From: a phage
Strand: one strand, 5' to 3'
Assembly (NCBI GenBank): GCA_009015555.1
Contig: GCA_009015555.1_3613.1
DNA: 64,000 nt
Below the pieces are notes generated by a model. The model was not told the origin of the DNA and did no database searches. It saw only the letters and a list, made by a program, of their open reading frames with translations. Both the position numbers and the translations under genes were made by a program. Shown here piece by piece: positions 1 through 9,525 of the stretch (position 1 is its first letter; every line of letters starts with the position of its first letter).

Positions 1-196
1 GCCGGAGATCATCGACATGCTTCCCTTGGTCACTCACCTCCGTGTGGTTGAGAACCAGGGTTACCCATTCGGTTTCAACGGTGACGCACAGGCATTTGGG
101 TTCGCATCGGTTTATGACTCAGAGCGTACCGGGGCAGGTGGCATGTCCACCCTAATTTATGTATCGGACGACGAGGAAGACTGGTCGTTCACGTGA
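1..196 (+). CDS. 3' end of an upstream gene truncated by the window edge (probably structural)
   Basis: Open frame from position 2 to TGA at 194-196, then GAGGAG RBS and ATG of the fibre gene at 207. Confidence 0.35.
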   Translation, partial: PEIIDMLPLVTHLRVVENQGYPFGFNGDAQAFGFASVYDSERTGAGGMSTLIYVSDDEEDWSFT

Positions 197-206
197 GGAG
201 ATTTTC

Positions 207-1862
207 ATGGCTAAACCAAAGGACCCTATTTACGTTTGGGCTGCTGCCGACGTAAACCTTCCAGGCACGGGTCGTCCTAACAAATCAAAACCTATTGACG
301 ACTTGCTCGCCAAGGGTTACGATAAAGGACAAAAGCCAGCAGCAGAAGAGTTCAACTATATCCTGAATATGTCCTCTGCCTGGGTTAACTGGATCGTCAA
401 CGAGAAGTTTCCAGAGCTTGAGGCAGAAATCGCCCGGCTCTTGGCAGAACTTGAAAACCGCATCAACCAGCAGTTGGCTGTTATCCGTCAGGATATTGCC
501 CAACTGAAGCAAGATGTCGCAGACCTTCGTCGGTATGTCGATCAGAAGGTTCAAGAACTGAAGCAAGAAATCCAAGGCGTCCGAAACGACCTGAACAAAC
601 TGCGTCAAGACTTTGATGCTGCGATTGCTCAAGTCAACGGACGAATTGATGACCTTGAGCCACGCCTTGTTCCAATCGGTGCCGTTATCCCTTGGCCTGG
701 GGCTACAGTCCCTAACGGCTGGTTGGAGTGTAACGGCCAGGTGTTTAATACCGGGACAAACCCTAAGCTGTATGGAGTCTTGGGGCGTAACGTTGTTCCT
801 GACTACCGTGGTCTCTTCCTGCGCGGCTGGGCACACGGCTCCGGTGCTAACGATCCTGATGCTGGTCGTGCTCTCGGTTCTGTTCAGGGTGACGCCATCC
901 GTAACATCACGGGTTACTTCCCTGCGGATATCGGTCAGTCAGGCTGGATCGGTCGTTACGTTGGTGGTGTGTTCCGGGACGATGGCGCACTGACCTCTGG
1001 TGACCAAGGATCTCGTAGTGGTGAAGTACGTAAGTATAGCCTCGATGCTTCCCGCCAGGTCCCAACGGCCCCGGAAAACCGTCCGAAGAACGTCGCGGTT
1101 ATGTACATCATCAAGACTGACCAGGCACAATCCTCCGGAGGCAACTCACCAACGGCGATCGTCGTCTCTCCAGACACAATCACCAACCGTGTAGGATACA
1201 CCGTCAAAGCGACTGCGAGTGTACTCCCTGCTTCCATCGCAGGTCAATACCCTGTAACATGGTCTACTCAAAATGCTGCGGTGGCAACGGTTGATGGTTC
1301 TGGCAACATCCGCCTTGTAGGGCCGGGTGAAACCAACATCATCGCTTCCATCTCTACCGGGATGAACGTAGCGATCCGTGTGACGAGCTATTCTGTTCTG
1401 ACCAGCATCTCCATTGCTGATCCGGGCCAGATTCCGGTCACAGAATCGAAGATGCTGGTTGTTACCAAAAACCCGGGGAGCGCGAACGAACCTCTGCAAT
1501 TCCTGTCAAATAACTCCGGTGTTGCGACTGTGAACGACGCAGGTTACGTAACTGGTGTTTCCCCGGGAAGTGCCACAATCACGGTTCGTGGTACTCTTTC
1601 CGGAGTGTCATCAACTCGTTCAGTGACTATTATCCCTGAGCAAGTGGAGGAGAGCGTACAGGACAACCGTCTCGGTGCGGTAGGATCTTACATCCCACCC
1701 GGCAACGAAATCAGTTGGACTTTCCAAGCCCCTCAAGGTTGTGCTCTGACAGGTATCATCGTACAAGACGTCGGGTCCAACTCCGCCGACAACATCGGTG
1801 GTGTTTATTACAAACCGATCCAGAAGAAAGTTAACGGCGTCTGGGTCACGATCACGGGGTAA
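207..1862 (+). CDS. tail fibre protein (tail-collar domain, coiled coil, Ig-like repeats)
   Basis: GAGGAG RBS 6 nt before ATG 207. Heptad-like coiled coil (LAELENRINQQLAVIRQDIAQLKQDV), tail-collar-like signature IGAVIPWPG..VPNGWLECNGQ..YP.L...LG..VPDYRGLFLRG, then two Big_2-like Ig segments. Confidence 0.8.
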   Translation: MAKPKDPIYVWAAADVNLPGTGRPNKSKPIDDLLAKGYDKGQKPAAEEFNYILNMSSAWVNWIVNEKFPELEAEIARLLAELENRINQQLAVIRQDIAQLKQDVADLRRYVDQKVQELKQEIQGVRNDLNKLRQDFDAAIAQVNGRIDDLEPRLVPIGAVIPWPGATVPNGWLECNGQVFNTGTNPKLYGVLGRNVVPDYRGLFLRGWAHGSGANDPDAGRALGSVQGDAIRNITGYFPADIGQSGWIGRYVGGVFRDDGALTSGDQGSRSGEVRKYSLDASRQVPTAPENRPKNVAVMYIIKTDQAQSSGGNSPTAIVVSPDTITNRVGYTVKATASVLPASIAGQYPVTWSTQNAAVATVDGSGNIRLVGPGETNIIASISTGMNVAIRVTSYSVLTSISIADPGQIPVTESKMLVVTKNPGSANEPLQFLSNNSGVATVNDAGYVTGVSPGSATITVRGTLSGVSSTRSVTIIPEQVEESVQDNRLGAVGSYIPPGNEISWTFQAPQGCALTGIIVQDVGSNSADNIGGVYYKPIQKKVNGVWVTITG

Positions 1863-1867
1863 TTAAC

Positions 1868-2383
1868 ATGCGTATGAATAACTTCAAACACTACAACCCG
1901 AAGGCGAAAGCCTTCGGGGACGGTGTTCAATATTTTTCTGATGACAAGGGCCGTGATTTTTACGAGAGTCTCGGCCTGTTTACCAAGAAATATGCGGTCC
2001 TTTTCGATGAGTTCGGAATGGTCCGCTTCTTGGTCAAGTCTGTGGATATTTCTATGACTTATCCATTGGGCCTGTCTATTTCTGACCTGAACAGCATCCC
2101 AAAGGACTTCGACATCATGAAGGGGCCTTGGATGTTCGATGGGAAGAAAATTACCAAGGTGGACTTCGACTTGGCTATCGGAACTGCCAAGCGTAAGAAA
2201 GCCATCATGGGGTCTCTGTCCAGCCAGATCACACCATTGGCTGATGCAGTGGGACTGGGTGAAGCAACAGAAGAGGAGATTGAGAAATATAATGCTCTTC
2301 TGAAACTTCGTGTTAAGCTAAATCGGATCTCTGATGACACTCCCGCGAGTGAAATTGATTGGTCTGAGTTCACCGCTGCATAA
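1868..2383 (+). CDS. putative tail fibre assembly chaperone
   Basis: Starts 6 nt after the fibre stop; size and position typical of fibre chaperones; no diagnostic motif. Confidence 0.45.
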   Translation: MRMNNFKHYNPKAKAFGDGVQYFSDDKGRDFYESLGLFTKKYAVLFDEFGMVRFLVKSVDISMTYPLGLSISDLNSIPKDFDIMKGPWMFDGKKITKVDFDLAIGTAKRKKAIMGSLSSQITPLADAVGLGEATEEEIEKYNALLKLRVKLNRISDDTPASEIDWSEFTAA

Positions 2384-2424
2384 CCTTTCAGGCCGGGTAT
2401 TTGCCCGGCCCCAGGAGAACACAC

Positions 2425-2763
2425 ATGGCTCTTGATATTATGTTGATTCTGAAGTCTCTTTGGGGTTTGGTGACTTTCCTTCTGTTGGGGGTACTCAAAA
2501 TCTTTTATTCCGACTTCAAGAAAATGCAGGAGAAGCAGGACGCTCTTGAAAAAGATCTGATTCGGCTTCGTGGTGAGATGGTCAGCAAAGATAGTATTGA
2601 TGACATCCTGGATCGTAAGATCAAGCATATCACCGACACTATTGGCGACATTCGTGCCGACATCACTGACATGCGGAAAGAGGCCAAAGAAGAGACTAAC
2701 GCTCTTCAGAAGGACATCCGCTCCGTACTTAACGTCATGTTGGAGAGTCGTCGCAACAAATGA
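2425..2763 (+). CDS. membrane-anchored coiled-coil protein
   Basis: AGGAGA RBS before ATG 2425; N-terminal TM segment then charged coiled coil. Track start 2401 is TTG inside a GC hairpin. Confidence 0.5.
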   Translation: MALDIMLILKSLWGLVTFLLLGVLKIFYSDFKKMQEKQDALEKDLIRLRGEMVSKDSIDDILDRKIKHITDTIGDIRADITDMRKEAKEETNALQKDIRSVLNVMLESRRNK

Positions 2764-3218
2764 TCACGTCCATTATTTTTGGACTCTGCTTCGTCATCCT
2801 GGCAACTCGCCCGGATGCCGGGGCCAAGATTATGGCGGGGCTTGGCCTCGCCTATCTTGTTCTCGAAAACCTGATGTTTTGGTTTTTCAGCGGGGCCGAG
2901 TTCTTCGACATCACGCTGTACTTTACCACAGCTTGGGCATTGGATTCAATACTTTTATTTGCCGTGGCACTCTTTGTCCGAGGGTATCGTCAGGTCGCTG
3001 TTTTGGCGCTGGCCCTGCCTCTGATGCTGGTACAAGTATTCGCAATCCAATATCCAATCTTATTCCCCGATTGGGTTTATTCCTTCGCCGTACAGGATGC
3101 ACACAGGTATTTCATCGAGGTGTTTATCTTCGTCTATTCCTGGAAGGACAATACAGTCTCCGAGTGGCTCAGAACAGGAACCGTTCTGGCACTTGTTATT
3201 GTTGCCCATCTGGTGTGA
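2760..3218 (+). CDS. multi-pass membrane protein
   Basis: ATGA overlap with upstream stop; four or more hydrophobic segments. Confidence 0.5.
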   Translation: MITSIIFGLCFVILATRPDAGAKIMAGLGLAYLVLENLMFWFFSGAEFFDITLYFTTAWALDSILLFAVALFVRGYRQVAVLALALPLMLVQVFAIQYPILFPDWVYSFAVQDAHRYFIEVFIFVYSWKDNTVSEWLRTGTVLALVIVAHLV

Positions 3219-3241
3219 CGCATTGATAATGAAGGTGTTCT

Positions 3242-3505
3242 ATGCTAAAATTCTTCAAAGACCTCGTAACTTCCCCCATCGAACCTGACAAGGCTTCCCA
3301 CACGAAGTTCTGGTCAAACGTGGGTATGGCGGCTATGACGGCAGTTTTCCTCTGGTACGGCTTCAACAACACCCTCCCGGAGTGGTATGTTTGGGTTTAT
3401 GCACCCACAGTAGTAGCACCTCACCTTCTGAGTGACCTCATCAATCTTCGTTGGGGTATTGCCAAGAAAGAGTCGGAAGTTTCCAACAACGAAGAATCCA
3501 AATAA
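3242..3505 (+). CDS. small membrane protein (one TM)
   Basis: ORF with a central hydrophobic helix (MAAMTAVFLWYGF), same strand as the fibre genes. Confidence 0.45.
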   Translation: MLKFFKDLVTSPIEPDKASHTKFWSNVGMAAMTAVFLWYGFNNTLPEWYVWVYAPTVVAPHLLSDLINLRWGIAKKESEVSNNEESK

Positions 3506-3517
3506 GAGGAGATTCGC

Positions 3518-6500
3518 GTGTCATCCAATACTGATATCATTGCCCTGTTGAGCAGCGATGCTGACAAGGCAGTTGACCAGATCATCGAAGACTCCAAACG
3601 TCTTCACATCGTGGTCAACGGGACGGGCACCGAGCAGGCTGTTGCAGAGGATGGGAGCTTGCTCCCGTCTGTTCGCAAAGCGCTGATCGACAACCTGTAT
3701 TTCAAAACCCCACCTCTTCCCTGGAGAAACGGTGGGTCTGTCAACGAGTTCAACCAGCTTTACTCCTTCACCGACGTAAGCGGGAACACCACTTGGTGGT
3801 ATGCGCCCGGAGCTACGGTATCAAACCCGGTTGTGATGCGTGACAGCCCGATCAATGACGGCAAGTTCAAGGTTTTCTTGGACAAAACCAACATCGCCGA
3901 TATCTATGCCCCTCTGAACTCTCCGAACTTCGTCGGTAACCCCCGTGTGCCTACCCCGGCCCCTGGCGACAACAGCCAAACCGTCCCGACAACCGGGTGG
4001 GTTCAGTCAGAGATGCAGGACCTGGAAGACCAGATCATTGCCTCTATGAAGGGTGATTTCGAAAACATCACCGTCCGTAACGATGCCGTTCTCAAAGACA
4101 CGTATATCAGCGGTGAGTTCATTGTCACCAGTGATAAGTTGTCCGCTGCCAGCGCCGAAGCAACCTTCCGTCGTATTCGTGTGGTCGGCACCGCAGACAA
4201 TACTGAGATCGCTTTTGAGCAGAACACCGCACCTCCAGCGGGGGCGAGCACAAAGACTAACATCAAGCCGTACACGATGTCAACAGGCATCTTGACGATT
4301 GACCAGTTGAAAGGAAAATCTGCCCAGATTGGTGATGTTGCTGTTGCCACGGACTCCCTGAATGTCGATGGGTACATGCGTGGGGATTACCTGCATCTGG
4401 AAGGTAACAACCGAAACAGCACAACCCGCCCTCAGTTGATCGTTGATGGTATTGCAGAGATCAATACGCTGCGGGTGACTGGAACCATCGAGGGTGTAAA
4501 AGCTGATGTTGATGGCTTGGATATTCATCCTCGTAGTGTTATCATCGACGAAGGTTTGACGGTTGGCAAAGATACCTCCCTGACAGGAAAGCTGACTGTC
4601 GGCGGTACAACCAAGGTGAATAACCTGGAGGTTACTGGAACCCTGTCTGGTGTTGCTATCAGTGTTGACGGTAAAGACATCAAGCCCCGCTCTGTTAACA
4701 CCGGGAACTTGGTTGCTACTGGCAACGTGCAGATCAGTGGGACGACCACTGCAACCGGGAAGATCACAACTCAAGATCTTGAAGTGCTTGGCACACTGAC
4801 AGCTAACCTCGACCTGTCCGGGTCGGATCTGAGTGTTGATAATATCAACGTTGCAGAAACCGCGACAATAAAGGATTTGGTGGTTACCGGAAAAACAACC
4901 GGGGTCAAAGGTGACGTTGATGGAACCTTGATCAAGCCTTCTTCTGTTCAGGCAACGGGCCTTGTGTCAGCAGGTTCATTGTCTACCAATGCAAATGCCT
5001 CTATCGGGGGTAACCTGACGGTGACTGGAGAGTTCCGTCCCGCCAGCATGGAAACAGGTGCAGTTGAGGCAGATAGTCTGGTTGTTAATGGTAACATTTC
5101 CCAGACGACAGGAACAACCTCTGTAGTCAACCTGGTTGTCACAGGAACGACAACTGGCGTAACAGCCGATGTCAATGGTGACGACATTTTGCCTCGCTCC
5201 GTGACTACTACTGCGGGGGTTAAAGTCGGAACCACCCTCGACGTAACTGGAAAGACTACCCTCGGAGATGTTGATTTCACTGGGGTTGTTACCGGGCTTG
5301 AACTTGATCTTTCTCAAAAGAACGTGACAGTTAAGTCAATTGCTGCTGTAGATCCTTCTGCATTTGGGGATGTGACGACAGATAATCTGACCAACAGCGA
5401 GAAGATCATCACTCAAGACATCCAAGTTCTGGGTGATATTCTGGATGCTGCGGGGAATCCTGTCAACACCTTTGATGTTACAGGCAAAGATATTCTGCCA
5501 AACAGTGTTCAATCTGCGACGTTTATTCGCGGAAAAACTCTGGACATCAGTGACGGTTCCACCCTCCGTGGCCCTGTCGAGTTCCGTAACGGGCTGACAG
5601 TAACTCTTGGAGACATCATGTCGCCCCAAGGGAAGGCAACGTTCAACGATGTACAGGTCAATGGTGCATTGACGGACGCTAACGGCAACGTCATCGGCTC
5701 CGTTGAAAGCATCAAGGGCAAGGACATTGAACCACGCTCCGTTGTGGCTACCGTGTCTGTACAGGCCCCTCGTCTCCAATCAACTGGGGATATTTTGGGC
5801 CAGAGCGCGACAATCACCAATAACGTCTCTGCGGGGACCTTGGGTGTTTCCGGGTTGACAAACCTGGCAGAAACTCGTGTGAATGCGAAGCTAACAGGGC
5901 AATCCACAGAGTTCGAAACTCTGCTCCTGAAGCGCGTTGCTGGTCAAGATACACCTCGCTTGGTTGTGCAGGGGGATTCAGATCTCCAGGGGGACCTGAA
6001 CGTCTCGGGGACCATTACCGGGATTGTTGACCTGACGGCTCAAGATATCCGTATGAACAGCCTTGTGCTCGCCGAGGATCTTTCTGCAAGGAATATTACA
6101 GGATCAGGCACGGTTCAGGGCGCTAATGGAATTTTCGGCCAGTCTTCCCAGCCCACCACCCAGTACGGTTTGCAGTCTCTTTCCAGCGCTAAGGTAGATA
6201 AAAACCTCGATGTTGGAGGAAACTTGCGGGTAACTGGGGCCATTACCGGAAGTATGGACTTCACAGGGAAGGATATTACCCCACGGAGTGTCGCGGCGTC
6301 AGCCGGAATCGGGGCCGTGGATATCACGGCATCCGGCACGACAACGACGAAGGACCTTGTGGTCACCGGGACGACAAGTTTTGCGGGAGACAGCGTTTTC
6401 AATGCAGGCCAGGTTAAGTCCAAGTTGTTCACCGTTGACATTGGTACTGATATCACTTCAGGATCGGGGTCTTGGATTCCAGACGGGCTTCAGTCCGTTT

Positions 6501-6742
6501 ATAACGTGACGGTTACCGCCGATACCGTTATCGGTTCCATTGCTCAGTTGCCGGGCGCGGGGACTTACTTCTTCTATATCGAGCAGGATGCTGTTGGGGG
6601 CCACACTGTGACCTTTGACCCAGCTTACCTCAAGATTGGTGATGGAGAAGTGGCTACAGCGCCAAACGCAATCTCTCTGGTCCAAGTAATCTACCGTGGT
6701 AAAGGTTCAATCTTCGACTACGTGATTCTTAACCGAGGTTAA
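3518..6742 (+). CDS. large tail fibre / adhesin with tandem ~30-aa repeats (1074 aa)
   Basis: GTG start after a purine-rich RBS. About 8 copies of TGx(T/S)GVxADVDGxDIxPRSV. Followed by a terminator. Confidence 0.8.
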   Translation: MSSNTDIIALLSSDADKAVDQIIEDSKRLHIVVNGTGTEQAVAEDGSLLPSVRKALIDNLYFKTPPLPWRNGGSVNEFNQLYSFTDVSGNTTWWYAPGATVSNPVVMRDSPINDGKFKVFLDKTNIADIYAPLNSPNFVGNPRVPTPAPGDNSQTVPTTGWVQSEMQDLEDQIIASMKGDFENITVRNDAVLKDTYISGEFIVTSDKLSAASAEATFRRIRVVGTADNTEIAFEQNTAPPAGASTKTNIKPYTMSTGILTIDQLKGKSAQIGDVAVATDSLNVDGYMRGDYLHLEGNNRNSTTRPQLIVDGIAEINTLRVTGTIEGVKADVDGLDIHPRSVIIDEGLTVGKDTSLTGKLTVGGTTKVNNLEVTGTLSGVAISVDGKDIKPRSVNTGNLVATGNVQISGTTTATGKITTQDLEVLGTLTANLDLSGSDLSVDNINVAETATIKDLVVTGKTTGVKGDVDGTLIKPSSVQATGLVSAGSLSTNANASIGGNLTVTGEFRPASMETGAVEADSLVVNGNISQTTGTTSVVNLVVTGTTTGVTADVNGDDILPRSVTTTAGVKVGTTLDVTGKTTLGDVDFTGVVTGLELDLSQKNVTVKSIAAVDPSAFGDVTTDNLTNSEKIITQDIQVLGDILDAAGNPVNTFDVTGKDILPNSVQSATFIRGKTLDISDGSTLRGPVEFRNGLTVTLGDIMSPQGKATFNDVQVNGALTDANGNVIGSVESIKGKDIEPRSVVATVSVQAPRLQSTGDILGQSATITNNVSAGTLGVSGLTNLAETRVNAKLTGQSTEFETLLLKRVAGQDTPRLVVQGDSDLQGDLNVSGTITGIVDLTAQDIRMNSLVLAEDLSARNITGSGTVQGANGIFGQSSQPTTQYGLQSLSSAKVDKNLDVGGNLRVTGAITGSMDFTGKDITPRSVAASAGIGAVDITASGTTTTKDLVVTGTTSFAGDSVFNAGQVKSKLFTVDIGTDITSGSGSWIPDGLQSVYNVTVTADTVIGSIAQLPGAGTYFFYIEQDAVGGHTVTFDPAYLKIGDGEVATAPNAISLVQVIYRGKGSIFDYVILNRG
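4440..6330 (+). repeat. in-frame tandem coding repeats inside the fibre gene
   Basis: Repeated protein motif V(T/D)G(K/D)DI(x)PRSV at irregular spacing; DNA copies are diverged. Confidence 0.6.
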
Positions 6743-6745
6743 TAC

Positions 6746-6771
6746 AGCCGCCTTCGGGCGGCTTTTATTTT
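6746..6771 (+). terminator. rho-independent terminator
   Basis: AGCCGCC-TTCG-GGCGGCT hairpin followed by TTTTATTTT, directly after the fibre stop. Confidence 0.8.
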
Positions 6772-6780
6772 GGAGGTATT

Positions 6781-7977
6781 ATGTTTCCTTTTGCTATTAT
6801 TCCACCGTTTGTTCTTTCAGGCAAGGAAAAAATCAAGCAGTTTTCGGTTACGTCTTACGACAGTATGGTCCTGACTGATAAGGGGAACCTGTATGTTACA
6901 GGATTCAACCGGGTGGGTGAGCTTGGTGTTGGGGACACAACTAACCGAAATAACCAATGGGTTTTGGTAATGCAGGACGTAAACTGGATTGCAAGCAACC
7001 GTGAGAAGCTGTGGGCAATTAAGAACGACGGTTCCATTTACACCCCGGATCTTCGGTCATCCAGTACAACTGCATATACTTGGCAAATCGACACGGTAGC
7101 ACCTGGAAGTATTGGGGATTTGTCTGGGGATAATATCAAGGAGATTTACAGCGACACAGAGAGCGTATATATCCTCAAAAAGGATGGTTCACTGTGGTAT
7201 CTGGGAAATAACTCTAAAGGCCAAGCTGGAAACGGGGGAACTTCCTTAACCACACGCTTTGTGAAGGTTTCAGATGGTGTGGTATCTTGGTCATCCAGTG
7301 GACCCACTGTTGTTTTCGTGAAAACAGACGGATACTTCTGGGGCTGCGGATCAAATTCCCGAAATATCATTTCCTCTGCTGGCAGCAGTATCACAACCCC
7401 TACCCGGATGTTTAGCACCACCCACGCTGACGGAGGTGTTGTAACAGATTACACGCTGGCCTCTGACCAAGCGTTTTTGATCAGATATAGTAATGGTAAA
7501 TATCGTACCAAAGGTCTCAATATCGGACAACTTCCTTCAGGGGATGCAAGTCCATACAATACCCTTACGGACGTTCCTGACGGATACACCCCCGGTGATG
7601 GAACGGAGCCTCTGGTAAGCAAAACAGGAGGGGTGTCGGCCTCTGGAACTTGGCCTAACTATAGTGGTCTTTTCTTCTACCATACGGGAGGGAAATTCAT
7701 AGTCACTGGTCAAGCAAGCGGGAGAATTTCCGGGACCAGCCAAACCAGCGGTACACTCTCAAACTGGACCAATGTCGATGCGGCAAGTGACGAGATCCCA
7801 TCTATCAAGGGAATGACCTTCGGACTGGGTTGGGTTGCTGCCTACAACGATACGCAGATTCTGTACTGGGGGTATACGGGAAACTCCTCTGCATATCCGG
7901 TTGTGGGATACCTAATGCCCGGACCTTCAAGGCTTGAATATGTGGCACGTTTTGCAACCCCGCCGATCGAGGCATAA
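6781..7977 (+). CDS. RCC1-repeat (beta-propeller-like) protein, probably fibre-associated
   Basis: GGAGG RBS. Repeated G-x-N-x-x-G-x-L/A-G-x-G motifs (GFNRVGELGVGD, GNNSKGQAGNGG, GLNIGQLPSGD). Confidence 0.65.
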   Translation: MFPFAIIPPFVLSGKEKIKQFSVTSYDSMVLTDKGNLYVTGFNRVGELGVGDTTNRNNQWVLVMQDVNWIASNREKLWAIKNDGSIYTPDLRSSSTTAYTWQIDTVAPGSIGDLSGDNIKEIYSDTESVYILKKDGSLWYLGNNSKGQAGNGGTSLTTRFVKVSDGVVSWSSSGPTVVFVKTDGYFWGCGSNSRNIISSAGSSITTPTRMFSTTHADGGVVTDYTLASDQAFLIRYSNGKYRTKGLNIGQLPSGDASPYNTLTDVPDGYTPGDGTEPLVSKTGGVSASGTWPNYSGLFFYHTGGKFIVTGQASGRISGTSQTSGTLSNWTNVDAASDEIPSIKGMTFGLGWVAAYNDTQILYWGYTGNSSAYPVVGYLMPGPSRLEYVARFATPPIEA

Positions 7978-8010
7978 TAAAAAGGCACCCTAACGGGTGC
8001 CTTTCTTTTT
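7978..8010. terminator. bidirectional rho-independent terminator between convergent blocks
   Basis: AAAAA-GGCACCC-TAAC-GGGTGCC-TTTCTTTTT: A-tract on one side and T-tract on the other. Confidence 0.8.
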
Positions 8011-8021
8011 ATCATGACAAC

Positions 8022-9254
8022 TTAGAAGGGGATGTCATCGTCGAAATCAACTTCCGGCGGAGTCATGTCGATATGACCGTTGCTGCTTGTCGCAGGAGTC
8101 GATTGTAGAGTCTCCGGTTTAGGGTCCACCTTAGGGTCAGGCTGGGACTGTGCAGTTTGTGCCACAGAGCCACCAGAACTTTGCTCACCCTTGACGTATG
8201 CAGATACGCCCGGGACAACCTCGCTCATGAGACCACGAGCATAAGCCAACAGCTTACCAGTGATCTCTTCTGGATTGTCGTTCTCACCAACCTGGATATC
8301 ACGGGTGGCGTTCAGAACAGCATGGCCCACCATCGCACCCAGATCGTAATCAGACATACCCTTGTTAGCCGGATCATTTGCAGCGTCCAGCTTCAGATGT
8401 TTGGTGACATCATGAACAACCTTGGCTACTTCCACCACCGGAGGGATAGTCAGACCGCTACGACGCAGGTTCAGGGCACCGTTCAGTGCATGGCCCGTTT
8501 CCATACCGGAGTTGTCCTTCTTGAAACCACCTTTGGAACCGCCCGCACCTGCACCAGCAGAACCTTTTGGACCGTAGGCTTTGAAACCTGACAATGTACC
8601 ATCCTCAGCACGTTGCCCTGCCAGGCGACCACCCACCTGAACTTGGGCGATCTGCTCTTTGTTCAGAACCACAGAGACTTCATTACCGTTCTCATCCTTC
8701 ACCACAGCGCCTGTATCGCTCAGGGAGAGGATTTCTCCGTAAACCTTAGTGGTTTTGCCACCTGGGGCGTTGGACGACGCAGAGGACGTCTGAGAGCCTC
8801 CTGCATTGCCTGCCGGGGCGGCATCACGGGCACCGGATTTGTCGGTAATAACGATCTTGGATTTCTTACCCTCCGGGGCAGAGCGTTCGTTGCCGTCACT
8901 ATCAGTCCACTTACGGATCTGGACAGGAACACGAATTGCCATACCCGGCTTCAGGTCAACCCATACTTCGCCTTCTTTTACCTGATACTGGCTTTCGTAT
9001 TTCATGTTCTTCACTTCGTGAGTTCCGAAGCTGATCCACACCTGATCTTCACCGTTTTTAACCAGCAGAGATGCACGGTGAGTGGCAACGATAGTCTTAC
9101 CCTTGTTCGGACCCTTGTTAATGGGGGTAATTTTCGGACTGCCGTCCTCGTTGATGCGTTTAATGTTGATACGTTCGATAGTACCAACAGCCAGGCTTAC
9201 CGTAGAGTTGTCGATCGGGTTAACTACTTCGGTAATTACTTTAACATCAGACAT
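8022..9254 (-). CDS. ssb: single-stranded DNA-binding protein
   Basis: C-terminus DFDDDIPF (bacterial SSB-type acidic tail); Gly/Ser/Ala-rich linker; N-terminal beta-rich region. Confidence 0.75.
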   Translation of the reverse strand: MSDVKVITEVVNPIDNSTVSLAVGTIERINIKRINEDGSPKITPINKGPNKGKTIVATHRASLLVKNGEDQVWISFGTHEVKNMKYESQYQVKEGEVWVDLKPGMAIRVPVQIRKWTDSDGNERSAPEGKKSKIVITDKSGARDAAPAGNAGGSQTSSASSNAPGGKTTKVYGEILSLSDTGAVVKDENGNEVSVVLNKEQIAQVQVGGRLAGQRAEDGTLSGFKAYGPKGSAGAGAGGSKGGFKKDNSGMETGHALNGALNLRRSGLTIPPVVEVAKVVHDVTKHLKLDAANDPANKGMSDYDLGAMVGHAVLNATRDIQVGENDNPEEITGKLLAYARGLMSEVVPGVSAYVKGEQSSGGSVAQTAQSQPDPKVDPKPETLQSTPATSSNGHIDMTPPEVDFDDDIPF

Positions 9255-9339
9255 TCACTTCTCCTTCGAGGATAAACAAGGCCCCAGAATTGAGGCCAGG
9301 ACAACAGGTTACCACATTTACTCAGAATTGCAAGGTGCC

Positions 9340-9525
9340 TTACCAGACACCGAACCAAACGCCGACCCCGTGGATAACACCGACCGGGGCGAAGATAGCA
9401 CCCGCAATCAGGAACAGCCACGACGCAGTTTTGATACACACCACAACGTGGGTGATCCATGCGACGATGGATGCGATTACGATTGCCAGCCAACCCAGAC
9501 CTAAACCTGCCAGTAACTTGTTCAT
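9340..9525 (-). CDS. small membrane protein (two TM)
   Basis: 61-aa ORF, almost entirely hydrophobic. Confidence 0.4.
   Translation of the reverse strand: MNKLLAGLGLGWLAIVIASIVAWITHVVVCIKTASWLFLIAGAIFAPVGVIHGVGVWFGVW

Follow-up and report, generated by a model that had tools for sequence, protein, structure and literature searches.

Described relatives of the locus studied here are those of phages phiTE, CB7 and W70. The baseplate wedge of phiTE carries both a short and a long tail fibre, and a third putative fibre is mentioned too (PMC11972413). In the cryo-electron microscopy (cryo-EM) structure, residues 14-171 of the long fibre are modelled as a trimer bound to wedge protein 2A and the sheath initiator, with the short fibre placed on wedge protein 1; beyond residue ~171 an AlphaFold3 trimer predicts an extended beta-helix (PMC11972413). 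Virion proteomics found the long fibre of CB7 (CB7_36, 81.9 kDa, 19 peptides; PMC7344957) and that of W70 (W70_107, phrog_4549, 112 kDa, 996 spectra; PMC11370258). The proteins encoded at the position after the long fibre are minor virion proteins in both phages: CB7_37 has 43.5 kDa and 4 peptides (PMC7344957), and W70_106 has 44 kDa and 115 spectra (PMC11370258). CR3, CR8, phiTE and CB7 are known to use the flagellum as receptor. Here, we describe the corresponding locus in a stretch of 64,000 nucleotides (nt) of phage DNA (GenBank assembly GCA_009015555.1, contig GCA_009015555.1_3613.1), referred to as the window. It contains a long tail fibre gene at positions 3518-6742, whose product has 1074 amino acids (aa), followed by a gene for an RCC1-like beta-propeller, referred to as the partner, at 6781-7977. 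All features are listed in Table 1.

We find that the tip of the fibre and the propeller gene are exchanged between phages as a unit, while the shaft is built from an ancient module that varies in number. The fibre gene is ordinary and has been annotated before, and its family has published structural and proteomic data. What is new is a definition of the module, a set of natural variants in length and the cassette of tip and propeller, a modest increment; the fibre itself adds little.

Identity of the fibre gene

The window is a segment of a Certrevirus (Vequintavirinae) myophage genome, and its positions 1-25000 have 96% DNA identity to the Cronobacter phages PBES 02, CR3 and CR8. The open reading frame (ORF) 3518-6742, on the plus strand, starts with a GTG located 7 nt 3' of AAGAGGAG. 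It has 98.7% nucleotide and 99.7% amino acid identity to ADU18_0140 of PBES 02 ("tail fiber protein (2)"), with equal coordinates. The best phmmer match in the PDB is chain g of 9CUY/9MJN, the phiTE "putative tail fiber protein" (E=0), and the alignment to 9cuy_g covers residues 1-511 of the fibre and then again residues 807-1071, the latter corresponding to phiTE 515-791. The families PF26208 and PF26209 are recorded for a protein identical to the fibre (P0001), and PF26209 (Phage_phiTE_241_C) is recorded for all fibre orthologues as well. The ORF is very probably a Certrevirus long tail fibre, orthologous to phiTE gp241, CB7_36 and PBES 02 gp140, with a modular shaft and a tip that is exchanged together with the propeller gene.

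NCBI lists proteins identical to the fibre and the partner (P0001 and P0090) from a contig of 149,946 bp, under the name 'hypothetical protein F9047_11085/11090 [Escherichia coli]'. Thus, a complete Certrevirus genome sits in a bacterial assembly record. Its nearest named relative infects Cronobacter.

The fibre tip and the propeller gene as one cassette

Alignment by blastn of window positions 1-9400 to CR3 and F1M1E shows that homology ends at nt 6087-6099 (residues 857-861) and resumes at nt 7975. The left border lies directly after a conserved block of the shaft around module 7 (residues 807-857), and the right border is the end of the propeller gene. In PcCB7V, DNA homology likewise stops at nt 6087-6099, and the deletion that distinguishes the phiTE fibre ends at residue 807, the start of the same block.

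Within these borders, tip and partner co-vary. Among 13 genomes, the identity of the last 110 residues of the fibre tracks the identity of the partner (Spearman 0.74, Mantel p = 0.0004); no such relation is seen for the first 300 residues (0.15). Between the window and CR3, for example, the N-terminus is 100% identical, the tip 38% and the partner 26%. The opposite combination is found in P0007, where the N-terminus is phiTE-like (95%) and the tip and partner have 84% and 83% identity to the window. The type of the tip predicts the type of the partner in 15/15 genomes examined, and an RCC1-like partner follows all seven type-I tips, including the one on a fibre of only 538 aa. This shows that phages exchange the end of the fibre and the propeller gene together, as a single cassette with sharp borders. 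Retargeting of a Certrevirus would probably need the partner gene to be moved together with the fibre tip, with borders at nt ~6100 and 7977.

The tip ends in a globular domain that the AlphaFold2 (AF2) model predicts to consist of beta strands throughout, with a predicted local distance difference test score (pLDDT) of 82-90 over residues 981-1070 and 67 for residues 971-980. The domain is common to the C-termini of the FV3 fibre and of the fibre of the jumbo phage CBB. Its structural matches in BFVD are 'phage tail fibre C-terminal domain' proteins, with root mean square deviations of 2-3.5 A over ~100-110 residues.

Fibre gene and partner gene are separated by a GC-rich terminator-like hairpin with a T-run and a GGAGG after it, an element kept in 13/13 related loci (the equivalents in L002-L016). 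The stems differ between loci and yet are self-complementary (GCCGCC/GGCGGC, GGCCC/GGGCC, GCCCC/GGGGC), which suggests a functional read-through terminator, and the phiTE record annotates the hairpin as a terminator. It would terminate transcription partially, lowering the dosage of the partner and setting the stoichiometry of the two proteins.

At the right cassette border of PcCB7V, the partner gene is directly followed by a gene (L006:7084-7515) for a homing endonuclease of the HNH type (HNH_3, E 3e-21, with an AP2 domain). Small minus-strand genes at the same place in L012, L013 and L015 were considered as homing endonucleases too, and rejected: they have no family match, and only the PcCB7V gene is an HNH gene.

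The RCC1-like protein and its possible role

The partner matches Pfam RCC1_2 with 29.9 bits (cut-off 22); WD40_RLD is matched at 7.9e-17 but under its cut-off of 150 bits. The AF2 model has a pLDDT of 87 and a predicted template modelling score (pTM) of 0.88. In Foldseek it is aligned over the full length to UVR8 and RCC1 with template modelling (TM) scores of 0.59-0.72, or 0.55-0.72 when the RLD of HERC2 is included. The partners that accompany other tip types are remote homologues of the RCC1-like protein (hhalign 97.7%, E 2e-12), and the peptide M-x-P-F-[A/P]-[I/L]-I is common to their N-termini. No RCC1-like paralogue was found elsewhere in the 64-kb window.

We tentatively suggest that the propeller recognises the host as the distal subunit of the long fibre, or serves it as an obligatory adaptor, and that with the last ~214 residues of the fibre it forms a two-gene host-range cassette that phages swap whole. 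The dosage of the propeller would be set by the conserved read-through terminator. The propeller would dock on the C-terminal domain of the fibre (Phage_phiTE_241_C), and propeller and tip together would recognise the host. The sequence-only reading had proposed the RCC1-like gene as a possible separate receptor-binding subunit. This is strengthened by the movement of the gene with the tip as a cassette and by the presence in CB7 and W70 virions of the protein encoded at this position; the receptor-binding role itself is plausible.

The label 'regulator of chromosome condensation' is a name transfer, and the fold alone implies neither guanine-nucleotide exchange nor chromatin binding. If our suggestion is true, virion proteins of Vequintavirinae with this label, and perhaps those of jumbo phages, would serve host recognition and not DNA packing. 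The name 'RCC1 / chromosome condensation' of phage virion proteins is misleading, and the cassette offers a testable alternative function.

A modular shaft

The sequence-only reading described an irregular tandem array of about eight copies of a ~30-aa motif. The eight copies are confirmed as a real observation in the 1074-aa protein: the signature [D/L]I.P.S[V/L] is present eight times, with last residues at positions 341, 393, 477, 562, 664, 742, 849 and 925 and spacings of 52, 84, 85, 102, 78, 107 and 76 aa. In a leave-one-out test with a 30-aa position-specific scoring matrix (PSSM), copies 1-5 and 8 score 17.5-36.4 bits, reached by 0/200 shuffles (shuffle maximum 17.9), and for copies 6 and 7 significance is confined to a part of the motif.

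The repeating unit is longer than described, ~44 aa, and the copies number ten, including two that are degenerate or partial. This follows from a module set of 122 instances in 44 homologues, reduced to 52 non-redundant ones and converted to a 44-position profile. On the fibre, this profile has 10 matches of at least 9.7 bits, while the best of 200 shaft shuffles reaches 7.3 bits. The consensus is x-V-x-G-x-T-T-V-x-D-L-x-V-T-G-T-x-T-G-V-x-A-D-V-D-G-x-D-I-x-P-R-S-V-x-T-T. The degenerate copy at residues 576-603 is more canonical at the equal position in A73, P0023 and P0034.

All ten copies fall within residues ~300-960. They are not arranged strictly in tandem; they are interspersed, 33-107 aa apart, with non-repeat spacers rich in Gly, Thr, Val, Ser and Asp that have a beat of ~11 residues. 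The shaft as a whole contains 0 Cys and 54% Gly+Thr+Val+Ser+Asp, and its autocorrelation shows the same 11-residue periodicity. Self-blastp gave the main diagonal only, and PSSM and hidden Markov model scans with shuffles were used instead. Pfam fibre-repeat families have no match in the fibre.

The diverged DNA of the copies, also pointed out from the sequence alone, is borne out. Tandem Repeats Finder reports no DNA-level repeat at a score of at least 30 (0 rows). Copies 1-4 have 46-55% DNA identity and 43-52% protein identity, and different codons are used at 50-85% of their shared residues.

Age and length variation of the array

Each major copy has its best match at the equal position in the orthologue P0021 (59-70% identity, vs 9-52% to other positions), and the same positional orthology is mostly found in A73, P0031 and P0034, which are 37-50% identical overall. 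As the copies match at equal positions in distant orthologues, the array predates the Certrevirus/Septuagintavirus split. Among 26 non-redundant long orthologues, modules are 68% and spacers 56% identical to the window (Mann-Whitney p = 2e-9, with residues that are not independent). The array is thus ancient, and the sequences indicate that it is maintained by selection on the protein rather than on the DNA. The earlier idea of an old repeat expansion forming a long shaft agrees with the position-matched copies in orthologues of 37-70% identity and with the beta-helix in the phiTE AlphaFold3 trimer.

The number of modules varies with the length of the orthologue: 2-3 in rV5-type fibres (549-620 aa), 5 at 734 aa, 4-5 at 790-793 aa and 8-10 at 1064-1094 aa. 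Overall, there are 1 to 10 modules in fibres of 538-1094 aa, on the same anchor and tip. The module definition accounts for this length range of the family, and the natural length variants mark where in-frame shortening is tolerated. A natural 'minimal' fibre is found in a metagenomic locus (L015:2343-3959), where a 538-aa protein has a single module together with the same anchor, a type-I tip and an RCC1-like partner.

The fibres of phiTE and CB7 are without residues 511-806 of the window. In a second metagenomic fibre (P0025, 790 aa), the stretch from module 3 to module 4, exactly 85 aa, is missing, and a hybrid module is found at its residues 452-477, in which the N-terminal half of module 3, DLVVTGKTTGV, is joined to the C-terminal half of module 4, TADVNGDDILPRSV. 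This deletion preserves the register although modules 3 and 4 have only ~50% DNA identity. The megablast end points at residues 467 and 844 also lie in modules, which span about half of the shaft.

In-frame loss and gain of module intervals would tune the length of the fibre. By extrapolation from phiTE, where a length of 512 A is predicted for 793 aa, the fibre in the window would be ~70-75 nm long. The module family is rare: its profile matches only 52 representative clusters among 1.84 billion at E<=0.001, all consistent with phage fibres (480-3974 aa) and including "proximal long tail fibre" proteins of jumbo phages.

Weighing the interpretation

We propose above that the propeller belongs to the tip of the fibre, and we suggest that the modules would be structural nodes of a trimeric beta-helical shaft. 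Some points weigh against these proposals. In the view favoured by the phiTE authors, it is the short fibre that binds the flagellum first. The co-variation of tip and partner could come from physical adjacency alone, as any recombination block co-inherits adjacent genes. The RCC1-like protein would then be an unrelated virion protein, for instance head-internal or DNA-organising. A DNA-condensing role has been proposed for phage RCC1-like virion proteins (PMC7247149, PMC11370258), DNA packing being the suggestion of the W70 and phAPEC6 authors, and the name RCC1 derives from a chromatin-binding protein. Further, W70 has three more phrog_4219 RCC1-like virion proteins far from its fibre genes (W70_237-239), and phAPEC6 has eleven RCC1-like proteins. 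In independent comparisons, however, the exchanged block stops precisely where the propeller gene ends, and on its left side it begins within the fibre. There are 0 mismatches of tip and partner in the 15 genomes, which cover at least 4 cassette types and fibres of 538-1094 aa, despite the intergenic hairpin as a possible crossover site. The propeller gene is also the last gene of the baseplate-fibre operon; it starts 38 nt past the fibre gene on the same strand and has its own conserved ribosome-binding site. We therefore regard linkage alone as a rather doubtful explanation. Fibre-tip chaperones, on the other hand, are typically encoded directly downstream of the fibre and co-vary with its tip, as in the fibre genes of Mu, P2 and the T-even phages, which counts in favour of the propeller being an assembly chaperone specific to the tip, which would for the most part dissociate from the fibre, as T4 gp38 does, or remain there in part, as does Tfa of phage Mu. 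Its low abundance in virions would fit as well (4 vs 19 peptides in CB7, 115 vs 996 spectra in W70), but it is equally expected for one subunit per trimeric fibre, expressed behind a terminator. Since the partner is detected in two purified virions while the homologue of the short-fibre chaperone, CB7_32, is not, and since a full seven-bladed propeller of ~400 aa is unlike the known fibre chaperones, a chaperone is unlikely.

For the shaft, the structure is solved in no homologue (the phiTE model ends at residue 171), and the AF2 monomer of the full fibre has a pLDDT <55 and no secondary structure over residues 300-960, as expected for an obligate trimer. A profile search of the PDB at E<=10 found no solved structure of the module, only phiTE and designed WD40 proteins. 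The latter ('WRAP-T') were rejected as spurious, a 15-residue look-alike (VTGVAFSPDGQTIA) being summed over identical repeats. The P0025 hybrid is the sole natural deletion that joins two modules in register; phiTE, P0032 and a second deletion in P0025 use other short microhomologies, and with one clear case the modules are not established as preferred recombination junctions. The composition and periodicity of the shaft, together with a sub-threshold Bactofilin match, are nevertheless consistent with a beta-helical rod. This match (PF04519, residues 406-500, E 3.1e-4) could also be taken literally, the fibre being a bactofilin-like polymer-forming cytoskeletal protein, and the orthologue in the rV5-like Escherichia phage YP-6 is indeed annotated 'polymer-forming cytoskeletal protein' in GenBank. 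With 21.4 bits it stays under the curated gathering cut-off of 27.9, and a common beta-helix-like sequence periodicity is its simplest explanation; with a homologue seen on the baseplate by cryo-EM and found in virion proteomes, a cytoskeletal protein is hardly conceivable, and the phiTE structure in practice refutes it. The motif might instead be a ligand-binding unit that forms a row of weak receptor sites along the shaft, contacting for example the flagellar filament. Certreviruses are flagellotropic, a periodic array on a long thin fibre could fit a helical filament, and the conserved Asp, Gly, Pro, Arg and Ser could make a binding loop. However, residues in contact with a receptor are expected to differ with the host, while no other part of the shaft is as conserved as the motif among the phages of Cronobacter, Pectobacterium, Klebsiella, Enterobacter and E. 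coli. Jumbo-phage fibres have the motif too, as do rV5-like phages with glycan receptors, and single-module relatives retain the same tip and partner. Binding along the shaft is thus very unlikely.

Baseplate anchor and neighbouring genes

The N-terminus of the fibre has ~92% identity to the phiTE long fibre over residues 1-228 and 85% over residues 229-510. In the AF2 monomer model, the pLDDT is 63-83 over residues 21-120, and Foldseek aligns the N-terminal domain to 9cuy_h (E 2.9e-20, 94% identity). Weak Foldseek matches in the PDB to the N-terminus of CBA120 TSP4 (E 0.16-0.36) were set aside, and only the phiTE N-terminus is significant. The fibre trimer would be anchored through residues ~14-171 to the wedge and the sheath initiator, and would be a major virion component, as shown in homologues, the latter in close ones. 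The sequence-only reading had made its case depend on the 1074-aa protein being in virions; its orthologues CB7_36 and W70_107 are both found there.

Residues 16-130 of the fibre (window 3563-3907) have ~40% identity to the N-termini of colanic-acid-degrading tailspikes of phi92-like (phi92 gp150-type) and phAPEC8-like phages. This likeness suggests that receptor-binding proteins which are otherwise unrelated dock to the baseplate through a common module.

Table 1. Features of the fibre locus, in window coordinates (residues refer to the 1074-aa fibre).
Feature	Coordinates	Strand	Evidence and remarks
Short tail fibre (tail-collar + Ig-like Big_2)	207..1862	+	Pfam Collar 9e-13, Big_2 5.5e-14
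Short-fibre assembly chaperone	1868..2383	+	Pfam Caudo_TAP 2.5e-12; phrog_136 9.4e-41
Small protein, 112 aa; one hydrophobic helix at the N-terminus, C-terminal part charged and probably coiled	2425..2763	+	Hydropathy; phrog_5345
Multi-pass membrane protein, 152 aa, Phage_phiTE_239	2760..3218	+	Several hydrophobic 19-mers; phrog_7451; PF26221 on orthologues
Small protein, 87 aa, annotated membrane protein	3242..3505	+	phrog_1322 4.5e-32; PBES 02 ADU18_0139
Long tail fibre gene	3518..6742	+	1074 aa; phrog_4549 E=0; PDB 9cuy_g (phiTE long fibre) E=0
N-terminal baseplate-attachment region, aa 1-175	3518..4042	+	Helical bundle + globular domain
Shaft module 1, aa 308-351	4439..4570	+	64.0 bits
Shaft module 2, aa 361-403	4598..4726	+	62.0 bits
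Shaft module 3, aa 444-486	4847..4975	+	59.4 bits
Shaft module 4, aa 530-572	5105..5233	+	55.0 bits
Degenerate module, aa 576-603, 'VTGLELDLSQKNV' variant	5243..5326	+	13.8 bits vs shuffle maximum 7.3; absent from the sequence-only reading
Module 5, aa 651-671	5468..5530	+	17.7 bits; C-terminal half only retained
Module 6, aa 704-749	5627..5764	+	15.3 bits; 59-70% identity at equal position in P0034, P0031, P0021
Module 7, aa 825-855	5990..6082	+	11.5 bits; within conserved block aa 807-857
Module 8, aa 898-933	6209..6316	+	39.8 bits; inside tip cassette
Partial module, aa 938-953, N-terminal half only	6329..6376	+	9.7 bits
C-terminal globular beta domain, aa 975-1074, Phage_phiTE_241_C type	6440..6739	+	AF2 model; phrog_15437 1.4e-13
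Exchangeable cassette: last 214 aa of fibre + intergenic hairpin + whole partner gene	6100..7977	+	blastn borders; tip/partner co-variation
Terminator-like hairpin AGCCGCC-TTCG-GGCGGCT + T-run, then GGAGG ribosome-binding site	6746..6763	+	Between fibre stop and partner ATG
RCC1-like seven-bladed beta-propeller, 398 aa, proposed fibre-tip partner	6781..7977	+	Pfam; phrog_4219 5.7e-93; AF2
Terminator-like hairpin between partner gene and convergent gene 8022-9254	7981..8004	+	Marks right cassette border

The gene order of short fibre, chaperone, three small membrane proteins, long fibre and a ~400-aa partner is conserved, and it is found in the window. The likely start of the short fibre is M17 of the mechanical ORF 159-1862, as phrog_12846 matches from residue 17 and ADU18_0135 of PBES 02 maps to 207-1862. 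Two fibre systems had been expected from the sequence, and both the short fibre, followed by its chaperone, and the long fibre have counterparts seen on the phiTE baseplate wedge.

Hydrophobic segments are present in the products of all three small genes between the fibre genes (2425-3505), and 0 19-mers of the 3242-3505 product pass the strict hydropathy cut-off. The genes are kept in every Certrevirus, Septuagintavirus and metagenomic relative examined. The view that three membrane proteins are unusually inserted here is therefore right as to their hydrophobic nature and their place between the fibre genes; the arrangement itself is lineage-wide, and one of the proteins belongs to PF26221. 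The three proteins and the chaperone (CB7_32 in CB7) are missing from the virion lists of CB7 and W70 (PMC7344957, PMC11370258). The three small proteins are non-structural and typical for the lineage. A holin/spanin set was considered and rejected: it has no family support, and in CB7 the spanins are next to the terminase and a holin candidate is next to a SleB-like lysin (PMC7344957).

Beyond the cassette, the convergent gene 8022-9254, on the minus strand, encodes 410 aa and belongs to phrog_4477, a family that assigns no function. Its last ~55 residues have a weak likeness to the C-terminal tail of single-stranded DNA-binding protein (NCBIfam E 1.3e-4, far under the cut-off). The GC skew of the window flips sign near ~8000 and again near ~44000, and the flip near 8 kb coincides with the change from the plus-strand structural operon to minus-strand genes.

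Comparison with known systems

Essentially the same genes are found in PBES 02, where ADU18_0140 and ADU18_0141 ('regulator of chromosome condensation') have 99.7% and 99% amino acid identity to the pair in the window, with equal gene-order coordinates. There is no material difference; the deposited annotation is silent on the repeat architecture and on the link between the two genes.

phiTE gp241 (PDB 9CUY/9MJN; Pfam Phage_phiTE_241_N/_C) and CB7_36 are like the window in gene position, in modules 1-3, in the module-7 block and in the type of the C-terminal domain. Their N-terminal 510 residues are 85-92% identical, and the protein is a virion component on the baseplate wedge and sheath initiator. 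However, they have 793 and not 1074 aa, as modules 4-6 and one degenerate copy (residues 511-806) are not present. Their tip is of another type (35% identity to the window over the last 110 aa), and their partner of 413 aa is only remotely related to the RCC1-like protein.

The rV5/FV3/PVP-SE1-type fibres (~550-620 aa, phrog_4549) agree with the fibre in the window in their N-terminal anchor and in the type of their C-terminal domain, and they carry 2-3 modules that belong to this family. However, their shaft is far shorter, and these phages use glycan receptors and not flagella. In FV3, the gene after the fibre (FV3_00027, L008:5801-9749) encodes a protein of 1877 aa with no demonstrable homology to the propeller in the window. 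A start of this protein with the same propeller is unsupported (hhalign probability 9.5%, 39 columns). One RCC1-blade-like motif (NGQLNITGYNRFGECRTGD) is present in its first 80 residues.

The 44-aa module (e.g. LVVTGTTTGVTA..NVDGLDI.PNSV) recurs in the jumbo-phage fibres named 'long tail fiber proximal subunit' (CBB gp226, GAP32, 121Q, SE_PL), as does the type of C-terminal domain. These fibres differ in length (1150-2100 aa), in their N-termini and in their downstream genes. The fibre in the window has no detectable sequence likeness to T4 gp34 or its solved fragments, as a PDB sequence search at E<=1 gives only phiTE and one spurious match, and the label 'gp34-like' of the jumbo-phage homologues is backed by no match found.

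An analogous arrangement is known from gp37-gp38 of T2/T6 and the fibre-Tfa pairs of Mu/P2, where the next gene co-varies with the C-terminus of the fibre and forms a host-range cassette. There is no sequence or fold relationship to these; the partner in the window is an RCC1-like propeller of ~400 aa, and its binding to the tip is only proposed.

A direct comparison for the cassette is 'tail fiber protein 2' of the flagellum-dependent phages CR3 and CR8. Its first 300 residues are identical to the window, and the DNA is 96-98% identical up to nt 6099, i.e., through modules 1-7. From residue ~861 they differ: the tip is of another type (38%), and the partner is a remote homologue of 422 aa (26%). 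CR3 and CR8 thus represent a clean natural swap of the cassette.

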